From Escherichia phage W70, in the sequence record OP778610: DNA of 64,000 nucleotides, one strand, 5' to 3'. The position numbers were made by a program, and so were the translations under genes. The notes under the pieces are model-generated. The model worked only from the letters and a program-made list of their open reading frames with translations. It had not been told where the DNA came from and ran no database searches. This document shows, in pieces, positions 405-63,982 of the stretch. How positions within the stretch are numbered: position 1 is the first letter of the stretch; the number at the start of each line of letters is the position of its first letter.

Positions 405-441
405 CTTTAAACCTCTCGTCGTTTGTATGAGCTAACTATAC

Positions 442-470
442 GAGAACTTGAGAGGAAGATCAATACTTGA
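442..470. repeat. isolated copy of GAGAACTTGAGAGG motif plus ATACTTGA half-site in divergent promoter region
   Basis: gagaacttgagagg at 442-455 matches the 20-bp unit repeated at 9135-9302; lies between divergent genes 1-404(-) and 527(+). Confidence 0.5.
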
Positions 471-526
471 TTTGCATTTTATTTTCATTATACTGTGCAC
501 ATCTAAAACGAGAAGGAGTGTAATAA

Positions 527-1690: not shown

Positions 1691-2920
1691 ATGCAAGCAA
1701 CTTATCAACGTATGGACCAAACCATGTTCAAAAAACGTATCAGTATCCGTGATATGGAACCACTGATCCGTCTGGGCGCTTCCATCGGTAAGACCGTGTT
1801 CTTTTTTGGTGGTGCAGGTCTTGGTAAGTCTGAAAAAGTAAAACAGATCGCGGACTCTATGTTCCCACATCGTGTAGGCAATAACCTGTGTGATGTTCGT
1901 CTGTCTGATAAAGAGCCACAAGATATTGCAGGCATTCCGATTCCGATCTCTTATCCAGATCCAAAGACTGGTGAAGAAGTTACCCGTACTGTATATGCTG
2001 TTCCAAACTTCTGGCCTACCGATCCTGATTGGGAAGGTATCGTGTTCCTGGATGAACTGCCGAACGCACCATTGGGTACTCAGCACTCTGCATATCAGGT
2101 TATTCTTGATCACGTTGCAGGTGAGCATAAGTTCCCGAAAGGTACTGTGTTTGTAGGTGCGGGTAACCGTGATACTGATGGAGCAGGGACAACATCTATG
2201 CCTGGTCCACTGGTTAACCGTATGATCATCGCCGAGGTTGATTATAATCTGGATGTGTGGATCGAAGATTATGCGATTCCGTTCCGTCTGCATCCGAACA
2301 TTATTGGTTTCTTGAAGCAGTTTCCAGAGCATTTCTATACTGGTGACGTAGAAAACCGAAGCACTCCGGTTTATTCATCTCCTCGTCAATGGAAAACAGC
2401 ATCTGACATTCTGTATAAGTACGATGCTGGCGAGATTAATGAATTTATCGCAGAGGTTGCCCTGGCAGGTACAGTTGGTGAAGGCTTGGAAGTACAGATC
2501 CTTGCTTACCATTTACGTGCTAAAGAACTTCCTCCGATTGAAGATATCTTTAGTGGTGCAGTTAAAGAACATAAACTTGATCGCAGTAAGAACGACCTTG
2601 TTTACGTACTGGCACAAACTGGTCTGCGTCGTATGGAAGATGAAGTTATGGATAACGATATGACTGATGATAAGTTCCTTGAACGTGCAGGTAACTTCCT
2701 TACGTTCATGTACAATAACTATTATGCAAACAACAAGGATACGATGATTGCTTTGATCTTGGGCGTGTTCCGTGGTCCAAACGATAAGCCATCTATCCTG
2801 ACTGTTAACCCGAAACGTCAGAAAATGATTCCGCTCATGCGTAAAAGTTGCCCGACTGTTTCTGCCGCAGTTATGGAATACATGACTCGCTATGGTCAAC
2901 TGATTAAAGAATTCGAATAA
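1691..2920 (+). CDS. AAA+ ATPase, MoxR/CbbQ-like
   Basis: Walker A GGAGLGKSE, Walker B FLDELPNA, sensor GAGNRD; SD AAGAGGAG upstream. Confidence 0.6.
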   Translation: MQATYQRMDQTMFKKRISIRDMEPLIRLGASIGKTVFFFGGAGLGKSEKVKQIADSMFPHRVGNNLCDVRLSDKEPQDIAGIPIPISYPDPKTGEEVTRTVYAVPNFWPTDPDWEGIVFLDELPNAPLGTQHSAYQVILDHVAGEHKFPKGTVFVGAGNRDTDGAGTTSMPGPLVNRMIIAEVDYNLDVWIEDYAIPFRLHPNIIGFLKQFPEHFYTGDVENRSTPVYSSPRQWKTASDILYKYDAGEINEFIAEVALAGTVGEGLEVQILAYHLRAKELPPIEDIFSGAVKEHKLDRSKNDLVYVLAQTGLRRMEDEVMDNDMTDDKFLERAGNFLTFMYNNYYANNKDTMIALILGVFRGPNDKPSILTVNPKRQKMIPLMRKSCPTVSAAVMEYMTRYGQLIKEFE

Positions 2921-3000
2921 TCTCTTGACAACGAAAAACAGTTAACTTAATATAAGGGCATCTCGAAAGAGGTGTCCTTTTTTAATTTGGAGAAAATGAA

Positions 3001-4539
3001 ATGGCAAAACTTACGATTGAAGAAAGCAATATGATTGAAATGCAAGTCTCTGAAGCAGAGCGTATCATCGAGGCTGCTAGTCTACAACTGATGCGGTTTA
3101 AGCCCTTCTACGGGGTAATGCTTTCTTCTATGCCTGTTAAAAAGGCGACGGAGTGGTGTAGTACAATGGCGACTGATGGACGTAACCTGTATTACCATCC
3201 AGAGTTCGTTGCAGGTATGACAGAAGAACGTAAAAAATTGGTACTTGATCGACTTTCCAAAACTGAGAAAGATCCTAAAAAGCTGAAAGAGTCCACTGAG
3301 TTTATTAATGTCTTCTATCGTCGCAAGACTGCCCGTGAGCTTGCTCTTATTCTTGAGCACGAATGTGATCATGTGATCTCTGATCATGCCTCTCGTGGTA
3401 AAGGATTTAATCATGAACTTTACAACATTGCGGCTGACCATCGTATCAATACAACGGCTGTGCTTATTCACCAAAAAGGGGATGAGTTAGGTAAAGCATG
3501 GTTCCCTGCCGGAGAGAGAACAGTATTTGATAAGAATGCTGAGTTTGGATTTATGGCCTGGTCTTACTGTGATTTCCGATTCAAAGATATGTATACTGAG
3601 CAGATCTATGAAATCCTGAATAAAGAGCAAGATGATAAAGAAAAATCCAAAGGACAAGGTTCTGGTTCTGGAAGTGGAGAGGGTGATGGTGAAGAGGGTG
3701 ATCAAGGTCGTAAAGGTGTTGATCAGCACATGGACCAGAACGGCGATCCAGAAGATTCAGAAGGCGATAGTGTCGAAGATGCGTTAGGAATCGACCGTAA
3801 AGCGAAGCCTAAGCAAACAGCAGAGGAACGCCAGTATAACGATGGGGTTATGCGTCGAGCCATTGAGAATGCCGTACAGGCAGCAGGAAGCGGTGCGCCG
3901 GAAGATGCTCGTCGTTTTGTAGAAGCAGCAGGTAAACCAAAGATTAACTATCTTCGTTTGTTGCGTAAAACTATTGAACGTCTGTTTAAAGATGATGTAT
4001 CATATCGTCGTTTGTCACGCCGTAGTCACTCGTTAACTCGAACTCTTCGTAGTTCTGGTTACTTGTCTGGACGACAGACGATTGGTTTACCATCGAAGAA
4101 CAAACAGAAGACTATTCGTGCGGGTGTCTTCTTCGACGTATCGGGATCATTTAACGATGATCTATTGCGTCCAACAATGCGTGAGATTCGTGGATTATGT
4201 AATCTTTACGACGAATTTGAGGTCACGATGGCTTGCTGGTCAACAAAGGTTGGTAACATCGAGACGTATACGAAAAGAAACGTTGGTGAGATTGCTGACT
4301 ATAAGATCAAAACGACATTTGGTACGGATGTTTCTTGTGTGTTTGAAGCATTAGATGAAATGGAAGACCCTATGGATCAGATCATCATCTATACTGACGG
4401 TTACTTTGCTGATGTATCCCAAAAGAAAGATTGGGCCAAAAAGTATGGTAAGAATGTTCTTTGGATCATCCTGGGCCGTGGGTCTTCGTTCACCCCACCT
4501 TTCGGCAAGGCAATTGATTTTGACAAGTATCTTAAATAA
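3001..4539 (+). CDS. DUF2201-like protein: putative HExxH metallopeptidase-like N-domain plus VWA-like C-domain
   Basis: HExxH in LEHECDH; Gly/Ser/acidic low-complexity linker (aa ~215-250); C-terminal half VWA-like; directly follows AAA+ gene. Confidence 0.55.
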   Translation: MAKLTIEESNMIEMQVSEAERIIEAASLQLMRFKPFYGVMLSSMPVKKATEWCSTMATDGRNLYYHPEFVAGMTEERKKLVLDRLSKTEKDPKKLKESTEFINVFYRRKTARELALILEHECDHVISDHASRGKGFNHELYNIAADHRINTTAVLIHQKGDELGKAWFPAGERTVFDKNAEFGFMAWSYCDFRFKDMYTEQIYEILNKEQDDKEKSKGQGSGSGSGEGDGEEGDQGRKGVDQHMDQNGDPEDSEGDSVEDALGIDRKAKPKQTAEERQYNDGVMRRAIENAVQAAGSGAPEDARRFVEAAGKPKINYLRLLRKTIERLFKDDVSYRRLSRRSHSLTRTLRSSGYLSGRQTIGLPSKNKQKTIRAGVFFDVSGSFNDDLLRPTMREIRGLCNLYDEFEVTMACWSTKVGNIETYTKRNVGEIADYKIKTTFGTDVSCVFEALDEMEDPMDQIIIYTDGYFADVSQKKDWAKKYGKNVLWIILGRGSSFTPPFGKAIDFDKYLK

Positions 4540-7914: not shown

Positions 7915-8019
7915 CAAAAGAAGGGGCCTAAACAGGCCCCTGTAAGCATAAACAAGCACAAGACGATAAATGACCTTACCAAAGATAAAAGGTCCTCACA
8001 AACGCATACAGGAGCTTAC

Positions 8020-8838
8020 ATGGCCTATCGTAAATTTGACCCACTAATCATTTATGAAGTTGTCCCAATGAGTGTCTCCAATCCTCATGGTTTGCAATCA
8101 CCTACTCCACTTGACCATAAGACAATGATCAGGAATGCAGAGTACACCTTAAGAGATCTTGAGAACGAAGAGATTGAAAGTGCTGTGCATGGATTGAAAG
8201 ACCTGATCCGTGAACTTGATACGGATGATTCTGTTCAAGAATATATTGAAAAGTCAGAGGCGCTAATCACGAAGTTTCATGAGTACCGCACTAAGGTATC
8301 GCGTATTCTTGATGAAGCTTTTGATCCTTCATCAAAAGACCCGATAAATGATGACAAGGCAATAACCTTACTCAGCCAAATAGCTGACGCTACTGACAGC
8401 ATGGACCCTGGTTTTGTAAGGGCTGATCATACCTGTGTAGATCAGTTTCCTTTAGCCTATCTTAAATCCAAAAAAGCATTCGGTAGTCTGGCTTTTGTCT
8501 GGGAGTATGAGAAAGATTCCCTTACTCGTTACATCAATCGGGTAGGTAAGAAAGATACTTCAGTTACGTTAAATATCTTTTGTGATGGTTCCTTGATGGT
8601 CCATAACAACTGGACAAAAGAGAGCATCCTCTTTGGTAAAGAAAGAGATCAGAAATTTAAACTAGTAAACTATATCCGTTTCGCAACAGAGGATAGTAAA
8701 ATGGGTAAGTCATTTAAAGAGGAGGACTTTAAAACTTTCTTTGAGGATTGGCTTTCCCCAACAGAAGAAGAGATCCAACTCTTCAAGGCTGTGAATGGGG
8801 ATGTTTCATTTGACCTGTACACACTCTTTAACGAGTGA
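8020..8838 (+). CDS. hypothetical protein
   Basis: SD-like ACAGGAG upstream; 272 aa; last gene of left plus-strand block. Confidence 0.55.
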   Translation: MAYRKFDPLIIYEVVPMSVSNPHGLQSPTPLDHKTMIRNAEYTLRDLENEEIESAVHGLKDLIRELDTDDSVQEYIEKSEALITKFHEYRTKVSRILDEAFDPSSKDPINDDKAITLLSQIADATDSMDPGFVRADHTCVDQFPLAYLKSKKAFGSLAFVWEYEKDSLTRYINRVGKKDTSVTLNIFCDGSLMVHNNWTKESILFGKERDQKFKLVNYIRFATEDSKMGKSFKEEDFKTFFEDWLSPTEEEIQLFKAVNGDVSFDLYTLFNE

Positions 8839-8955
8839 TATTTGTTTGCTAAAACAAATTCAGATTTCAGATCCAAAATCTATTTGAGATATTTCCCTGT
8901 GATATTTGTTTCATGGGGAATTTTCAGATTTCAATTTGAAATTCTATTTGAGATA
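8836..8955. repeat. tandem imperfect ~56-bp direct repeat, period 64 bp, 2 copies
   Basis: TGATATTTGTTT..CAGATTTCA..TCTATTTGAGATA at 8836-8891 and 8900-8955. Confidence 0.7.
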
Positions 8956-9134
8956 AATTTAAGACTCTTGCCACCGTGTCACATCCATACTGTTTCATTC
9001 CTGCATACCCCGCACCACTAGATCAACTAAGCTGATGCCTCGCTTACAGACACACCCTTCAGATTCAATACGTTACTGCTCCAGTATACATACGATACAA
9101 AGCAAACATACGACACTCATGACCAGAATAATTT

Positions 9135-9302
9135 GAGAACTTGAGAGGTTTTTCATTTTTGAGATCGTAACCTGAAAACTGTGCACGAGAACTTGAGAGG
9201 TTTTTCGATACAGAGATTAGGAACTTGAGAGGTTTTTCATTTTTAAGTTTGCATTTGAAATTGAGAACTTGAGCTACAGGCCAGATACTTGAGGGGTTTT
9301 TC
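9135..9302. repeat. iteron-like array: 5 copies of GAGAACTTGAGAGGTTTTTC-type 20-bp unit
   Basis: copies at 9135-9154, 9187-9206, 9220-9238, 9263-9280 (degenerate), 9287-9302; irregular 30-60 bp spacing. Confidence 0.7.
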
Positions 9303-9666
9303 AAATTTCAGTTTCATTTCAAAATTGGAAAATTTTTTATATCCACAAAAATATAGGGCTTGTCAAGGTCTTTGATAAGAAATTTTCAGGAGGTGAGAAT
9401 TATTCTCATTTGCAGAATAACGGGCAGGGGTGGTGATTGCTTCGTGAAACCGTCCTCATCACCATGAATATATAATAGCACCGTTTTTGATTAGAAAGCA
9501 ACAACATTTTAAAAATATTTTTCGGTAAATTTTGGCCGAGCCACCGGCGATCCACCTTACAACCTGGCGGCGATGCCTGGTATGTTAGCCCCGCCTTTAC
9601 GCCGTGGGGATGGCGATTGTTTTCCTATGTAAGCATTATGGCCCCCTGGCGGGGCCGTTGTCAAGA

Positions 9667-9933
9667 TTATTTTTTGTTTTCTTGCCAGGCCAGGACACCT
9701 AACCAAAAAATAGGATAACCGCGTTTATCTTTTGGTATGTTGCTTTCCCCGCCACCGCCTTGCATCCATTCTACGCCACTGTTAAACATTTCAAGCTGAT
9801 AAAGGTCGGTTATCTTTGTATCCTTAAGGTTAAGGATTGTTTCAACCTTTAAGCCTGTTGCACTCGCCACTTGGTGGACCGTTCCACCTTGCCATTTTAA
9901 AGCGTGCATGAGGTGTAGTGTAGTAGTTGTCAT
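9667..9933 (-). CDS. hypothetical protein (uncertain)
   Basis: 88-aa ORF inside otherwise non-coding region; weak SD AAGGG 11 nt upstream; hairpin GGCCCC-N5-GGGGCC just downstream (9640-9657). Confidence 0.3.
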   Translation of the reverse strand: MTTTTLHLMHALKWQGGTVHQVASATGLKVETILNLKDTKITDLYQLEMFNSGVEWMQGGGGESNIPKDKRGYPIFWLGVLAWQENKK

Positions 9934-10045
9934 GTTGTGTTGCCCTTTCTTTTGTTGTGCGCCCTGGTTGTCGCGGTAAAAAGACTATAAATGATCTTCC
10001 TTTATATAGCAAGGAAAAAGAAATTAAAAAAGATTAAAAATAATG

Positions 10046-10074
10046 TTGACGTAGTGAATCTGGTAGCGTAGTAT
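10046..10074 (+). promoter_or_regulatory. sigma70-like promoter (TTGACG-N17-TAGTAT)
   Basis: -35/-10 hexamers with 17-bp spacer upstream of first small-gene cluster. Confidence 0.45.
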
Positions 10075-10131
10075 TCATCTCATCGAACGGCGACATGCCA
10101 ACAAGTAAACAAATAAAAGGGCAACAACAAA

Positions 10132-10317
10132 ATGAATAAAAGAATTACAAACGTAAATCCTGGCGAACGTTTCCAACATGAGGGGCATTTGCACACTGTA
10201 GTAAGCAACAAAGAGCATACTGTAAGAGTAAATAGAAATATCTTGCAACTTCGCGATCGTTTTGGTATCGTACAGACTTACACTTTCGAAGCAAATAAAA
10301 CAGTTAAAACTTTCTGA
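10132..10317 (+). CDS. hypothetical small protein
   Basis: 61 aa; SD AAAAGGG upstream. Confidence 0.45.
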   Translation: MNKRITNVNPGERFQHEGHLHTVVSNKEHTVRVNRNILQLRDRFGIVQTYTFEANKTVKTF

Positions 10318-10328
10318 GGATTTTTAAA

Positions 10329-10664
10329 ATGGCACTAGTCACTAAGTATTTCATTGAAGGCCAGCAAGCGGCGCAACAAGGTTACAGCCGTGTTACTCGT
10401 TACAAGAAAGAAGAAAACAAGATTGAATTTTTCAAGGGTTACGATAGTGTAAACCGTGATGCAATGGTCCTACGCTTCGAATCCGATCCAGTGGGCAAGC
10501 CTGTTACCTCTTACCAGGCATCACCGCAGATTGTTTATGTTGGTACTGTTAAAGAATGTAACGACAAGTTAATCACTTTGAAGCAGGCCGATCGTGCGGG
10601 TTACTTTGTTGTTTACACTGCTGACGGTAAGCCTTACCAGTACGAAAGCAAATATTTTAAATAA
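10329..10664 (+). CDS. hypothetical protein
   Basis: 111 aa; SD GAGGA upstream. Confidence 0.5.
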   Translation: MALVTKYFIEGQQAAQQGYSRVTRYKKEENKIEFFKGYDSVNRDAMVLRFESDPVGKPVTSYQASPQIVYVGTVKECNDKLITLKQADRAGYFVVYTADGKPYQYESKYFK

Positions 10665-10670
10665 AAAGTA

Positions 10671-10727
10671 TTGACAGAAAGAAAGAAGTAAATTAAATTA
10701 TACCACGTAACGCCGCAATCGTGCGGC
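10671..10727 (+). promoter_or_regulatory. promoter cassette TTGACA-N17-TAAATT plus 5'-UTR hairpin GCCGCA-ATCG-TGCGGC
   Basis: consensus -35; hairpin between -10 and SD of 10746 gene. Confidence 0.5.
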
Positions 10728-10745
10728 AATAAAAACTGATAGGAA

Positions 10746-10967
10746 TTGAACAAAATGGCTAAAATCATCATTAAAAAATCCCGTGTATCTTCTGTTGCTC
10801 GCGTCGAAATGGTAAACACTATGCCAGGTTACCGGACTCGCGAGGAAGCCCGAAGCGTTGCAAAACAGATTAAAGCCCGTGGCTTAACTGTAAGTGCACC
10901 GACCAAAACACAAGAAGGATGGAAGGTATCTATTAAATCCGGTACACTGTCGATCAATAAACACTAA
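10746..10967 (+). CDS. hypothetical small basic protein
   Basis: 73 aa, Lys/Arg-rich. Confidence 0.5.
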   Translation: MNKMAKIIIKKSRVSSVARVEMVNTMPGYRTREEARSVAKQIKARGLTVSAPTKTQEGWKVSIKSGTLSINKH

Positions 10968-10983
10968 TAGCCAAAACATTAAC

Positions 10984-10999
10984 GGGGCAACTTTGCCCC
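10984..10999 (+). terminator. hairpin GGGGCAA-CT-TTGCCCC, weak terminator
   Basis: perfect GC stem after stop of 10746 gene; no clean U-tract. Confidence 0.3.
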
Positions 11000-11030
11000 T
11001 CACTAAATAACATTATCCAGGAGTATTAAC

Positions 11031-38439: not shown

Positions 38440-39285
38440 TTATTTGCCCCCTTCTTTCGCCGCAGTGATGATCTGTTCAATTAACTCATCACGATAATAA
38501 ACGTACTGTTCAACACCGAAACATTCCGCAATCTCGTCTAGTTCGTCGAGGTTGTACTCGTCAAAGTCTCGTGGGTTAAGAGTAAAGATGTTGAATTTTT
38601 TGGCGTAGCCTTCGTCGAGGACGATTTCAAATTCTCCCTCTCCGATTTCCTTCGCATCATCAACATCACTCGATTCGATTGACCCTTCAACCTTAATCCC
38701 CCCTGTATTTTGTTGATCGGCTTCCATTTGCTTTTTAATTGCTTCATCTTCAGCGGTCAAACGGGCTTGCATCTGAGAGGAAGTGAAGTAAATTTCGCCA
38801 GCACGATCAAACAGTTCAACGAGTTCATCTTCTGTCATAACACCCTTGTACAGATCGTAGTATTTCTCTTTGAACAGGTCTTTGTAGAAATCGCTACGTT
38901 TAAATACCAGTGCTGAATCACCACCCATACTCATCTGAACGTTGTGGAACATGTAATGAGAACCTGGACGACAAATTCGAACATGACCAGACAAGAAGAT
39001 CATTGTTGCAGCACTTGCCACTTCACCAATACCGTGTGTTACAACAGTCGCCTTTGTTTCAGAGATCGCTGTCATGTACATATCTGCGATATCACAATAA
39101 CCACCACAAGAAGTAATGTACAGATTTACAATATCACCTTCAGGTGCTGAACGAATCAGGTCAACAGCCTCGATATGTGCTTCAGGTGAATTGTGCAGAT
39201 CCGTAACATAAATACGCCAATCGTTAGAAGTTACTGGAGACACCCAAATGTTTTTTGCCGGACCATTCATTACGATTTCTTCCAT
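38440..39285 (-). CDS. ClpP-like serine peptidase (S14 family)
   Basis: ITSCGGY..GEVASAATMIFLSG..MFHNVQ resembles ClpP catalytic core; acidic C-terminal extension. Confidence 0.55.
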   Translation of the reverse strand: MEEIVMNGPAKNIWVSPVTSNDWRIYVTDLHNSPEAHIEAVDLIRSAPEGDIVNLYITSCGGYCDIADMYMTAISETKATVVTHGIGEVASAATMIFLSGHVRICRPGSHYMFHNVQMSMGGDSALVFKRSDFYKDLFKEKYYDLYKGVMTEDELVELFDRAGEIYFTSSQMQARLTAEDEAIKKQMEADQQNTGGIKVEGSIESSDVDDAKEIGEGEFEIVLDEGYAKKFNIFTLNPRDFDEYNLDELDEIAECFGVEQYVYYRDELIEQIITAAKEGGK

Positions 39286-39297
39286 ATTAATTCCCCC

Positions 39298-39768
39298 TTA
39301 GCTAATTAAAGTACGGATGCGGGTAGCGTTTTGCAGAACCCAGTCTACTACGACAGAATGATCAGAGTCAACAATTACTTCATGATGACGTTTGAACATA
39401 TCAAGAATCTTTGCTGCTTCGGCAGTATAAAGTGCCGCACGATCTAAAAAGATAATCTGCTCTTTAAGTTCTTCTGTAATCGGACATAACTTACTTGGGA
39501 CCTTGATGGCTGACAAATGTTCTACCAACTCTTTTCGAGTAGAGAACATAATATCAACTTCCTGATCGATACTAAGAGAGCCTAAGAATAAGCGAGAAAA
39601 CCATCCACGATACTCATCGTTGTTTTTACGCAAAGTCTTAATTCCAAATATTAACTCTTCGAACAGGGCTGTTGCAATTTCTTCAATACGATCAGGAACA
39701 ATAGCCCCACAATTTTTCAATTCCATCAGTTTACGATGATCAACTGTTGCGTACATACCCTTATCCAT
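39298..39768 (-). CDS. hypothetical protein
   Basis: 156 aa. Confidence 0.5.
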   Translation of the reverse strand: MDKGMYATVDHRKLMELKNCGAIVPDRIEEIATALFEELIFGIKTLRKNNDEYRGWFSRLFLGSLSIDQEVDIMFSTRKELVEHLSAIKVPSKLCPITEELKEQIIFLDRAALYTAEAAKILDMFKRHHEVIVDSDHSVVVDWVLQNATRIRTLIS

Positions 39769-39776
39769 ATCACCCC

Positions 39777-40094
39777 TTAAATTCCGATTAAATATTTAAA
39801 CTTCCCGTCGTTCTCTGCGATCTTGTGGATTACATAGAACCAATTTTCAATTCCGTCTTCATCTTCCTCTTTCACACGATCACCAGTTTTTAACTCAACC
39901 TCGGAAACGTACTCCTTACTTTCAAGGAAATACTTCCACTGAACCATGTCTTTAAAATTACAGATTAGTTTATTTTTGCCATCTGTCGTCCAAAGGTCCT
40001 GATTGACCCACATACCAACAACGAAATTCTTTTCTTTCTTAGGACGACCAAGTGCATAAGTGTTGTTTAACATCTTTGCTTTATCTAAGACCAC
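39777..40094 (-). CDS. hypothetical protein
   Basis: 105 aa. Confidence 0.5.
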   Translation of the reverse strand: MVLDKAKMLNNTYALGRPKKEKNFVVGMWVNQDLWTTDGKNKLICNFKDMVQWKYFLESKEYVSEVELKTGDRVKEEDEDGIENWFYVIHKIAENDGKFKYLIGI

Positions 40095-40713
40095 GTTTTG
40101 ACTCCAAGTTAACTAAGAAACTCTCAAGCACTGCGATGTTGTCTTCTTTCCAAAGATTAAGTGTTCTTACACCATTCTTCTTTGCCAGATTGACTGCTGT
40201 TGCAGTGCCGCCTTTAGGATTACCCGTCTTTGTTTCCTTTGCGTAGTATATCACAAATTTACTTTGCATCAAGTAGGCATTTGAAAGATTTTTACCAAAA
40301 ATTTGGTGTACGTTTCTTTCGTGTAATTTCCTTGCCCCTTGACTCAACTTGTCCCATCCACCATGAACTTCCTTTATCCATTCCCATCGCATTTCTGTAT
40401 GTTCTGGAAATTCTTTATCAATCGTGTTCAGGGAGATATTATACAGATCTTTAAGTCCTTGTCCACCTTTAAAGTTGTCCCAAGGAACATATATCTCTGC
40501 AAGTTTGCTCGGTGATTGAGTCATATTGCAATCTTCATGAAACTTCTGCATACCTCTTTGGAAAGCTGCATCTGCACCATCTGCACCGCCAGATCGTAAT
40601 GTATATCCGACCCTTGCTAATCTCCAACCCGCATCTTCCATAATTTTTAATACTTCTTCAGGGGCCTCCCTTGAACCTATTCCTGTATAAGCTGGCACTT
40701 TAACCTCCTTCAT
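40081..40713 (-). CDS. SLOG/DprA-like Rossmann-fold protein (start uncertain)
   Basis: TGIGSR and RSGGADGADAAF motifs; track ORF extends to 40812, overlapping nrdG; no SD at any candidate start. Confidence 0.4.
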   Translation of the reverse strand: MKEVKVPAYTGIGSREAPEEVLKIMEDAGWRLARVGYTLRSGGADGADAAFQRGMQKFHEDCNMTQSPSKLAEIYVPWDNFKGGQGLKDLYNISLNTIDKEFPEHTEMRWEWIKEVHGGWDKLSQGARKLHERNVHQIFGKNLSNAYLMQSKFVIYYAKETKTGNPKGGTATAVNLAKKNGVRTLNLWKEDNIAVLESFLVNLESKRGLR

Positions 40714-63292: not shown

Positions 63293-63982
63293 TTACATAC
63301 CCTCCAGGTTTGCTTCAAAATAAGTGATTGGCTTCATGATCTTGCCATTCTTATCTTTAAATACTACACGATCCATACCATCACCACCTTTTACGATGCT
63401 TCCCTTTACACCTTGATAACGGTTACGGTTACGCAGTTCAATCTGTTCAGCTTCCAAACGCAACATGGCATCAATATCAAAATCAGCTTCTGCAAAAAAG
63501 TAATACGTCTTGTAGAAACATTCCGTAAATTCTTTCACGGTTGGGATCTTGGAATCATTTGAATCCAAAACCTCATTTAAAGCACGACGAGCATTAAAGT
63601 TGGAGTTCTGCATGATTGCAACAACCGCCATAACGATCCCGTTTGTATTGTCACTCTCGATAAATTGATCAAGAGTTCGATAAAGCGAAGTCAGATTATA
63701 CGTACCAACATTGTCAGCAGGACAGATGTTTTCAGAACCACCTTTCAGGAAGTTGTAATATGATCCAACTACAAACAGGTCGCAAAGTGCATCTATGATT
63801 TCCTTACGATTCTTTTTAGTTAAACCAAGATCATAAAGTTCATTGTACTCTTCCATAACAAGAGTTTTTTGGAATTTTGAAACATCTTCAGAGAAGTCAT
63901 GAAAACCACGAGCAACAAAATTCCAATTTTTTACTCGCTCTGCTGCTTCCCGAAAGAAGCTATTGCCCTTAACATCAATCAT
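63293..63982 (-). CDS. hypothetical protein, possible MazG-like NTP pyrophosphohydrolase
   Basis: VMEEYNELYDLGLTKKNRKEIIDALCDLFVV resembles the all-alpha NTP-PPase EExxE..D motif. Confidence 0.35.
   Translation of the reverse strand: MIDVKGNSFFREAAERVKNWNFVARGFHDFSEDVSKFQKTLVMEEYNELYDLGLTKKNRKEIIDALCDLFVVGSYYNFLKGGSENICPADNVGTYNLTSLYRTLDQFIESDNTNGIVMAVVAIMQNSNFNARRALNEVLDSNDSKIPTVKEFTECFYKTYYFFAEADFDIDAMLRLEAEQIELRNRNRYQGVKGSIVKGGDGMDRVVFKDKNGKIMKPITYFEANLEGM

Follow-up and report, generated by a model that had tools for sequence, protein, structure and literature searches.

A conserved, probably protein-binding repeat array in non-coding DNA of a Vequintavirinae-like coliphage as a candidate replication origin

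What use does a coliphage make of five copies of one short word, all reading in the same direction, in a stretch of DNA that carries no functional gene? The question was raised by a sequence-only reading of Escherichia phage W70 (record OP778610), in which an iteron-like array of a 20-bp motif was described at positions 9135-9302 of the window (the whole 64,000-nucleotide stretch of DNA analysed, to which all coordinates refer unless another genome is named). The window comes from a Vequintavirinae-like (rV5-like) coliphage: positions 8000-11000 are 93-95% identical to Escherichia phages A73, A7_1, A5-4 and UPEC06 (unclassified Vequintavirinae of 142-145 kb), and positions 8000-9541 (1,542 bases) are 95.9% identical to vB_EcoM-LTH01, whose record boundary falls at that point, inside the module described below. 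Comparison of this locus with its relatives indicates that the array is a real, conserved and probably protein-binding cis element.

A motif scan of the window recovered the exact 20-mer GAGAACTTGAGAGGTTTTTC at two positions and a version with two mismatches at a third, and matches to it in 100 dinucleotide-preserving shuffles of the window numbered zero. A further copy, AGATACTTGAGGGGTTTTTC, differs from the 20-mer at 5 of 20 positions, with the degeneracy at its 5′ end, and keeps 14 of the 15 bases of the core CTTGAGAGGTTTTTC. The array and its surroundings comprise the following features.

9135-9154, plus strand: copy 1, exact; opens unit 1; kept in five relatives with a single A/G change.
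9187-9206, plus strand: copy 2, exact; a secondary copy (box A′) within unit 1, followed by GATACAG; invariant in six of six genomes.
9219-9238, plus strand: copy 3, with two mismatches at its 5′ end (motif scan); opens unit 2.
9263-9273, plus strand: an 11-nt half copy only, GAGAACTTGAG; a secondary copy within unit 2; invariant in relatives.
9283-9302, plus strand: degenerate copy, with one mismatch over the 15-nt core; opens unit 3.
9135-9345, plus strand: the whole array, as three homologous units (9135-9218, 9219-9282 and 9283-9345; unit spacings of 84 and 64).
9296-9365, no strand: AT-rich stretch that follows the last copy immediately, with A+T reaching 85% in 40 bp.

The five direct copies of the sequence-only reading are therefore real, and none is expected by chance, but their uniformity was overstated, since two are exact, one has two mismatches, one is degenerate and one is a half. 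Every copy, including the remote one considered below, lies on the plus strand, and the array thus contains three near-exact 20-mers, one degenerate copy and one half copy in a single orientation in non-coding DNA, as iteron arrays do (at least three direct repeats of approximately 17-22 bp). The spacings, which had been called irregular (30-60 bp), are indeed uneven, at 52, 32, 44 and 20 bp from start to start; what changes is the picture of a free-standing 20-mer, for the motif is where constraint is strongest within three ancient units of 63-84 bp whose homology extends across genera. The four full copies lie 52, 32 and 64 bp apart, or 4.95, 3.05 and 6.10 helical turns, a near-integral phasing that is a post hoc observation and is not seen in other lineages (spacings of 78/63, 74/67 and 68/75 bp). 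The stretch was also correctly read as non-coding: an open reading frame over the array (79 aa, minus strand, 9065-9304; annotated in A73) is composed of the repeats themselves, and no open reading frame is annotated over the corresponding DNA in the arrays of CR3, phi92 and phiTE, so that we rejected a coding function and treat the array as non-coding in practice. The earlier exclusion of a CRISPR array likewise holds, as the repeat is at most 20 bp long, against 24-48 bp for the regular repeats of CRISPR, the gaps are irregular (0-32 bp), the would-be spacers are conserved and homologous across phage genera, and no cas-like domain was found among the neighbouring proteins searched against Pfam, in keeping with the reported lack of cas genes.

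Each unit carries the lineage-specific word, here termed box A, together with the T tract TTTTTC(A)TTTTT and what is left of two further boxes, of which the box B remnant GATCGTAAC lies at 9163-9171 and the box C remnant GGAAAATTTTTT at 9325-9336. Alignment of units from four lineages, including those of SSBI34, CR3 and Bas58, gave the consensus TTT-GG-ACTCGATCG-TTTTTCATTTTC-AGATCGTATTCT, against which the 20-mer can be read as the window lineage's version of box A plus the T tract, with boxes B and C decayed in this lineage. The copies at 9187 and 9263 match partial second copies in CR3 and phiTE (for example, GGGTCTCGGTACAG; the CR3 counterpart of copy 2 is GGGGTCTCGGTACAG), and the shared GATACAG behind the secondary copies confirms their homology. 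In the Salmonella phage SSBI34 the cores of the three units differ from one another, and in Mt1B1_P17 (Phapecoctavirus) the array is AT-rich.

The array occupies part of a larger gap, flanked by a 272-aa plus-strand gene and an 88-aa minus-strand gene, within a long run of small plus-strand early genes, and the genes on both sides share one direction. The 88-aa open reading frame (9667-9933) contains a stretch that resembles a helix-turn-helix by eye, and is absent from CR3, which has the array. The following features define the module.

8839-9666, no strand: non-coding module (approximately 830 bp) containing the array, from the open-reading-frame list and a six-genome alignment.
9394-9408, no strand: Fur-box-like palindrome TGAGAATTATTCTCA, with one copy here and up to five in other lineages.
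9409-9625, no strand: conserved block with an almost invariant core of approximately 70 nt at 9540-9615, from database matches and alignment.
9635-9664, minus strand: predicted promoter TTGACA-18-CATAAT with a G+C-rich palindromic spacer, matching 11 of 12 consensus positions.

Sensitive DNA searches matched parts of this module to between 227 and 438 phage records, spanning Vequintavirus, Certrevirus, Seunavirus, Mydovirus, Phapecoctavirus, Justusliebigvirus and others, in which the matching DNA almost always lacks annotation. Syntenic modules were located in CR3, phiTE, phi92, Bas58 (HeinrichReichert), SSBI34, POP15 and Mt1B1_P17, and the gaps of these seven phages and of 15 IMG/VR loci all share one left-to-right layout. 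Repeats of the form GATATTTG and TTCAGATTTCA...ATTTGAGAT come right after the upstream gene and are followed by a variable spacer; three units of 63-84 bp then begin approximately 490, 410 and 345 bp upstream of the invariant anchor GTTAGCCCCGCC; after the array come one to five palindromes of the form TGAGAATnATTCTCA and the conserved block, whose core is nearly invariant across very divergent phages; and the right end is formed by a conserved minus-strand promoter (TTGACA or TTGCAA, 17-18 nt, then CATAAT, TATACT or TATAGT) whose palindromic spacer is rich in G+C. In the window this promoter reads leftward from 9664 to 9635, toward the conserved block and the array, and its −35 and −10 elements are kept in all lineages of the module alignment, as judged by eye. 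Transcription starts are predicted near 9628 on the minus strand and near 9420 on the plus strand. A BLAST search of the phi92 cluster of Fur-like palindromes against E. coli genomes used a query too short for a database of such size.

Two further observations bear on what is being conserved. First, the three-unit array was found at a constant offset from the invariant anchor in Certrevirus, Seunavirus, Mydovirus-like, Vequintavirus and Stephanstirmvirinae phages, and has therefore been retained over a long evolutionary distance. The sequence-only reading had named absence of the motif from related phages, together with a lack of any protein that binds it, as what would refute it, and on the first of these the opposite was found, with the motif itself in close relatives and lineage-specific words at the same place elsewhere. 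Second, in the six-genome alignment of the window lineage, 4 of 93 columns within the motif copies were variable, as compared with 11 of 75 in the DNA between copies (Fisher P = 0.03) and 29 of 173 in the spacer upstream of the array (P = 0.003), which identifies the copies as the constrained part of the array. The stretch that follows the last copy is also exceptional in composition, in that only 0.07% of 40-bp windows across the 64-kb window are as AT-rich, and the DNA after the arrays of other lineages looks AT-rich by eye as well.

The same word recurs 8.7 kb from the array. At 440-455, ACGAGAACTTGAGAGG has 15-16 nt in common with the array copy at 9185-9200, whereas only 1 of 5,000 random 17-mers from the window shares at least 13 nt with the array. 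This sixth copy had been placed at 442-455 between divergent genes; it is real, slightly longer than first described, and lies between a minus-strand gene starting at 404 and a plus-strand gene starting at 527, in a gap between operons for which a consensus scan predicts back-to-back promoters.

440-455, plus strand: remote copy ACGAGAACTTGAGAGG; by homology, the sole non-array copy in the 142-kb A73 genome.
435-463, minus strand: predicted leftward sigma-70-type promoter TTGATC-17-TATAGT, matching 9 of 12 consensus positions.
467-494, plus strand: predicted rightward promoter TTGATT-16-TATACT of the early operon, from the consensus scan.

The genome-wide motif search that had been proposed was run on A73, the closest complete relative, and placed the word at the array (72068-72235 in that genome) and once at 63380 (equivalent to window position 442), and nowhere else. 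In A73, the leftward operon opens with a zinc-ribbon protein and extends to primase/helicase and DNA polymerase genes, and the rightward operon opens with an HD phosphohydrolase gene. Positions 441-457, which form the spacer of the predicted leftward promoter, enclose the remote copy, with 442-455 wholly within them, and a protein bound there, between −35 and −10, would be expected to repress this replication-operon promoter. The same site would be centred approximately 50 bp upstream of the expected start of the rightward promoter, and might act on that promoter too.

The identity of the word varies among lineages, and it is this variation that best suggests what reads it. The core word is ACTTGAGAGG in the window and CTCGATCG in most other lineages, and outside the window lineage it takes the forms TCTCGATCG, TTCTCGATCG or ACTCGATC; box A is GGGTCTCGATCG in CR3 and phiTE, GGGTTCTCGATCG in POP15 and Klebsiella-type phages, and GTACTCGATC in Bas58 and PVP-SE1. 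Several of the lineages share E. coli as a host and yet differ in their word, which makes reading by a host protein unlikely; the binder should be encoded by the phage. The window lineage and Certrevirus have homologous divergent promoter regions, in which the −10 and −35 elements align, and the homologous leftward promoter of CR3 (TTGATT-17-TATAGT) carries in its spacer AAGTCTCGATCGAGA, which is CR3's own array motif. Promoter spacers share 15 nt (window), 13 nt (CR3) and 10 nt (POP15 and phiTE, each) with the array of the same phage, but only 4-7 nt in cross comparisons between the window lineage and Certrevirus, and only 2 of 5,000 random 17-mers from the CR3 locus share at least 13 nt with the CR3 array. 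If one co-evolving protein reads both sites, the word should be replaced in parallel at the array and at the promoter 8.7 kb from it, and we consider this joint change at two loci the strongest sequence-based argument for a common protein reader.

This link between array and promoter is not universal. A repeat copy at the replication-operon promoter, as autoregulation would predict, was found in the window lineage and in Certrevirus, but SSBI34 has the same gene arrangement without an array word in the promoter spacer, and the promoter spacer of Mt1B1_P17 also lacks a match to its array word. The HD phosphohydrolase gene, which served as an anchor for the promoter region in Certrevirus and SSBI34, lies inside an operon in KB57 and PVP-SE1 and does not mark the promoter region there. 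Around the arrays of Bas58, PVP-SE1 and phiTE, further matches to the motif were sought and turned up inside coding sequence only; these are probably due to chance.

Together, the joint change at two loci, the conservation of the copies relative to the intervening DNA and the adjoining, extremely AT-rich stretch point to putative binding sites for a phage-encoded protein, and we propose that the copies most likely bind a sequence-specific DNA-binding protein made by the phage. The earlier suggestion of binding sites for a phage or host protein thus appears sound as to protein sites, and comparative evidence favours the phage over the host as the source of the protein, given that the word varies among phages of the same host. 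As for what the binding accomplishes, the general reading as a replication origin or regulatory region was also favoured by the comparisons, although sequence does not separate an origin from an operator array. Our leading reading, to which we assign a probability of roughly 0.4, is that the module is a replication origin, in which origin iterons are combined with a linked operator. Under this model, the array of three ancient units, with its five copies, would form the core of a conserved non-coding control module; the iteron-like sites would be bound by an origin-recognition protein; the adjoining AT-rich stretch would be the site of DNA opening; and the flanking promoters for host RNA polymerase could activate or prime initiation. 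At the one further site, in the leftward promoter spacer, this protein would obstruct RNA polymerase and thereby tie replication-gene expression to its own abundance, in the manner of the Rep proteins of iteron plasmids.

Features that favour an origin are the single orientation of the copies, the helical spacing of the full copies, the AT-rich neighbour, the inward promoter and the linked site at the operon. Other indicators of an origin were sought with less success. Searches of Pfam, PHROGs and PDB recognised no initiator or DNA-binding domain in ten neighbouring proteins or in the zinc-ribbon protein at the head of the leftward operon, a negative result limited by the fact that most of the neighbouring proteins searched have no assigned function. 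GC and AT skew keep their sign at the locus, and skew in these phages follows transcription (rV5 paper). The search for sites of the host factors DnaA and IHF gave a single DnaA-like site (9339-9347, 8 of 9 positions) that is not conserved in relatives, and clustering of DnaA boxes was not significant at the array locus or at 18.5-18.75 kb. The origin could equally lie in another non-coding region of the window, at 18480-18990.

The best surviving alternative, which we regard as possible but on the whole somewhat unlikely, is an operator array for a phage transcription factor without any origin function. An early protein that binds the word would shut off or retune the leftward promoter at 435-463 and may activate the rightward one; bound to the array, it would either govern nearby promoters or keep transcription from running on from one half of the early operon into the other, and the five sites might also serve as a sink that determines how much regulator is free. 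The remote copy occupies a classic repressor position in the promoter spacer, and the word changes jointly at promoter and array; an operator array would account for the promoter copy as well as the origin model does. Consistent with regulation at the module itself are its other operator-like elements (the Fur-like palindrome and the promoter at 9664-9635), the common direction of the flanking genes and a weak promoter-like sequence, TTGAGA-17-GATACT at 9261-9289, which is built from copies 4 and 5 and matches 9 of 12 consensus positions. However, apart from that weak site the array copies overlap no convincing promoter, known operator arrays are simpler than three long multi-box units beside a stretch of extreme A+T content, and no regulator gene was recognised among the neighbours. 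Tandem promoters were rejected as an identity for the repeats, since apart from this one 9/12 site the copies lack −35/−10 pairs and inspection of either strand by eye gives no consistent promoter.

It is improbable that the array is a relic of tandem duplication, or bent or otherwise structural DNA without a sequence-specific partner. The differing cores of the three units in SSBI34 and the decay of boxes B and C in the window lineage are what a relic might look like, and the T tracts could bend DNA, but the position of the array is kept across several genera and two subfamilies, its copies are more conserved than the DNA between them, and decay explains neither the 15-nt match to the promoter spacer nor the parallel match in Certrevirus.

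Still more doubtful is a role for the repeats as RNA, in which the module would be transcribed from the promoter at 9664-9635 or by read-through from upstream to give, for example, a protein sponge or a processed repeat RNA. A strong predicted promoter does read into the module, one base pair in the neighbouring block covaries in 7 of 17 sequences, and the relative phiTE encodes a repeat RNA, pseudo-ToxI, from a short repeat array in an intergenic stretch of a genome of the same subfamily (PMC3475682). Against this, there was no Rfam match (at E ≤ 1 in 8000-11000, or at gathering score in the whole window), the units are irregular in length with no inverted repeat common to the lineages by eye, shuffled sequences fold as well as the conserved block does (z = −0.09 and +0.39), and a copy inside a promoter spacer is left unexplained. 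The phiTE pseudo-ToxI also lies outside the homologous module, at a different locus (106,714-106,772, as compared with 38,959-40,253 for the module), and has no sequence resemblance to it; the repeats of ToxI are regular 36-nt tandem units, unlike the irregular units of the array. We accordingly rejected a ToxI-type (type III) antitoxin RNA, on the irregularity of the units and the 67 kb that separate the phiTE escape locus (106.7 kb) from the module (39-40 kb), as well as known RNAs more generally, given the lack of an Rfam match and of any tRNA or tmRNA.

Packaging (pac) sites can be arrays of short repeats, and the P1 pac site contains GATC, as does the ancestral array word. That the array is a pac site bound by the small terminase is nonetheless the least credible of these readings, for although circular permutation and terminal redundancy have been reported for phiTE and PVP-SE1 (PMC3475682) and the LTH01 record boundary falls inside the module, the A73 module sits among the early genes, with the large terminase gene (at position 1) approximately 70 kb away, a rough estimate shows no clear excess over chance of records that begin close to the module, and the promoter copy would go unexplained. 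The remaining probability belongs to something not considered here.

Comparison with known systems places the array among elements of a known kind. Iteron systems, including lambda ori with O, P1 oriR with RepA, and the plasmids pSC101, F and R6K, autoregulate their initiator. Like the window array, their origins consist of several direct copies of approximately 20 bp in one orientation, in non-coding DNA beside an AT-rich stretch, with a further copy in the promoter of the replication operon and a word that varies between related replicons. The window array differs from them in having neither a recognised adjacent initiator gene nor conserved DnaA or IHF sites, in having its copies set in multi-box units of 63-84 bp rather than packed at intervals of approximately 22 bp, and in that its remote copy is a direct full word and not an inverted half-iteron. 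T4, a phage with several origins and recombination-dependent replication, is like the window phage a large lytic myovirus, and its origins combine direct repeats (the oriE iterons, with RepEB) or a host-polymerase promoter (oriF and oriG, with a downstream unwinding element) with easily melted DNA, but they have no sequence similarity to the window. Phage repressor operators (lambda OR/OL and the dispersed C1 operators of P1) resemble the locus in that one word is present both at a promoter and in a distant cluster, and in that a site between −35 and −10 implies repression; in contrast to these, the window has five copies in the same orientation in a gene-free module with no convincing overlapping promoter, and its phage is virulent, with, to our knowledge, no repressor gene. 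The Vibrio phage satellite PLE, whose helper is ICP1, reportedly has an origin with iterons in a non-coding region, studied by sequencing during infection; there too, replication of a lytic-phage-associated element is tied to a non-coding, repeat-bearing stretch, although the phages and sequences are unrelated.

Arrays of iterons or operators are well known as a class; the version in this phage family, like the module that surrounds it, seems to be new to the literature. We found no published origin, transcriptome or Fur boxes on this locus for this phage group, and the array, the module and the Fur-like palindromes are not described in the literature that we found. On the map in the rV5 genome paper one box is labelled 'non-coding', and the skew analysis in that paper revealed no origin; the paper on the Certrevirus phage CB7 describes sigma-70-like promoters only. 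In the HIDEN-SEQ preprint, an interval of approximately 2 kb in Bas54 tolerated no transposon insertions; that interval separates oppositely transcribed genes, whereas the Bas58 module is flanked by genes on the same strand, and so it is probably a different locus.

A broader proposal, which we hold to be unlikely as a whole, is that the module (approximately 0.8-1 kb) is both the replication origin and the control centre of the rV5, phi92, phAPEC8, PVP-SE1 and CR3 group of large virulent enterobacterial phages, in which Fur-like sites could tie initiation or a transcript to the iron status of the host, and in which a novel type of origin-binding protein would make the word the determinant of replicon specificity. 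The control centre so proposed comprises the GATATTTG repeats, the three-unit array, one to five Fur-box-like palindromes, the core of approximately 70 nt and the inward-facing promoter.

These findings make the surrounding module of more interest than the 20-mer alone. Phages like rV5, phi92, phAPEC8 and PVP-SE1, although little studied, are widely isolated and are used as broad-host-range therapeutic and biocontrol agents, and a conserved, single-copy module with a lineage-specific putative protein-binding word offers a concrete and cheap experimental target in them, as well as a stretch that genome engineers should spare and that annotators should stop filling with small hypothetical open reading frames. 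If the word and its binder do define replicon specificity, they would bear on co-infection, recombination and exclusion among these phages.

To the right of the three-unit repeat array (9135-9345), the non-coding module (8839-9666) holds a block, approximately 71-82% conserved in phage records that number in the hundreds and span two subfamilies, that is preceded by Fur-box-like palindromes and followed by a predicted minus-strand promoter.

Features in and around the module (window coordinates unless another phage is named)
2-404, continuing beyond the window start, minus strand: zinc-ribbon protein gene (~162 aa, phrog_13698)
1691-4539: conserved gene pair, encoding a MoxR-like ATPase (phrog_1297) and a DUF2201 metallopeptidase-like/VWA-like protein
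8835-8955: 64-bp tandem duplication, GTGATATTTGTTT...TTCAGATTTCA...CTATTTGAGATA
9065-9304, minus strand: annotated small hypothetical ORF over the array and module (in the relatives A73 and UPEC06, 71998-72237 and 126786-127451, respectively)
9394-9408: Fur-box-like palindrome of the form TGAGAATnATTCTCA (phi92 locus L007, 2409-2519; CR3 locus L006, 2990-3108)
9409-9625, core 9540-9615: conserved non-coding block
9635-9664, minus strand: predicted near-consensus promoter, TTGACA-18-CATAAT
9667-9933, minus strand: 88-aa ORF (phrog_19316) adjoining the module
18480-18990: second gene-free stretch, where plus- and minus-strand gene blocks converge

The core of the block (~70 nt, CCGGCGATCCACCTT...GTTAGCCCCGCCTTTNCGCCGTGGGG) is nearly invariant. 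The block had no match in Rfam, its folding energy was not better than that of shuffled sequence, and RNAalifold returned stems with one pair covarying in 7 of the 17 sequences; two possible readings of the block are a DNA-level site and an RNA that has not been described. In the promoter beyond it, the -35 and -10 elements are kept across all lineages, as is the palindromic character of the spacer (a G+C-rich palindrome, GGCCCCCTGGCGGGGCC, in the window), with the spacer sequence itself varying, and this element could double as a terminator hairpin.

At its other end, the module opens in every lineage with two to four copies of GATATTTG, and in the window the 64-bp duplication lies immediately 3' of the upstream gene's stop codon. 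Two further copies of GATATTTG (at 18827 and 18850) fall in the second gene-free stretch, and four of the nine occurrences in the window lie within approximately 1.3 kb of non-coding DNA. This second stretch also contains repeated TGTGG-type words (CTGTGGACAAT; ATTGTGGAAA and AACCAAAATGGTTTA, twice each; and a 20-nt word, three times) and four DnaA-box-like sites (at most one mismatch) inside 160 bp, a density that is not exceptional compared with the rest of the window. It may be the counterpart of an insertion-intolerant interval in the related phage Bas54.

The small hypothetical proteins that public records place over the array and module are very probably spurious ORFs, and the label 'HNH endonuclease' that such records give to the DUF2201/VWA-like protein is unsupported by Pfam matches. 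Position 1 of the vB_EcoM-LTH01 record (PP430345.1) corresponds to window position ~9541, inside the conserved block, and the EC152, phi1_175008 and A112b records start within ~0.05-1.5 kb of the module; by a rough estimate, any excess of such starts over chance is not clear.

The 88-aa ORF, with counterparts in phi92, phiTE, SSBI34 and Mt1B1_P17 (absent from CR3 and POP15), includes a helix-turn-helix-like stretch, GGTVHQVASATGLKVETIL, as judged by eye. The zinc-ribbon gene, which heads the leftward operon and has homologues in Certrevirus, Phapecoctavirus and Pseudomonas PAK_P3- and KPP10-like phages, encodes a protein with no Pfam match, whose cysteine pattern (CGYCGR...HCCVCK) gives the impression of DksA/TraR-type zinc fingers.

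Finally, the Fur-box-like palindromes always lie immediately upstream of the conserved block, in one copy in the window, four in CR3 and phiTE, and five in phi92-like phages. Of the 14 positions that the 7-1-7 Fur-box consensus TGATAATnATTATCA specifies, the palindromes match 12-13. PMC2189734 discusses the 7-1-7 model; we found no literature on Fur-like palindromes in these phages. The palindromes suggest that virulent phages may use iron- or Fur-responsive control, or may titrate Fur.
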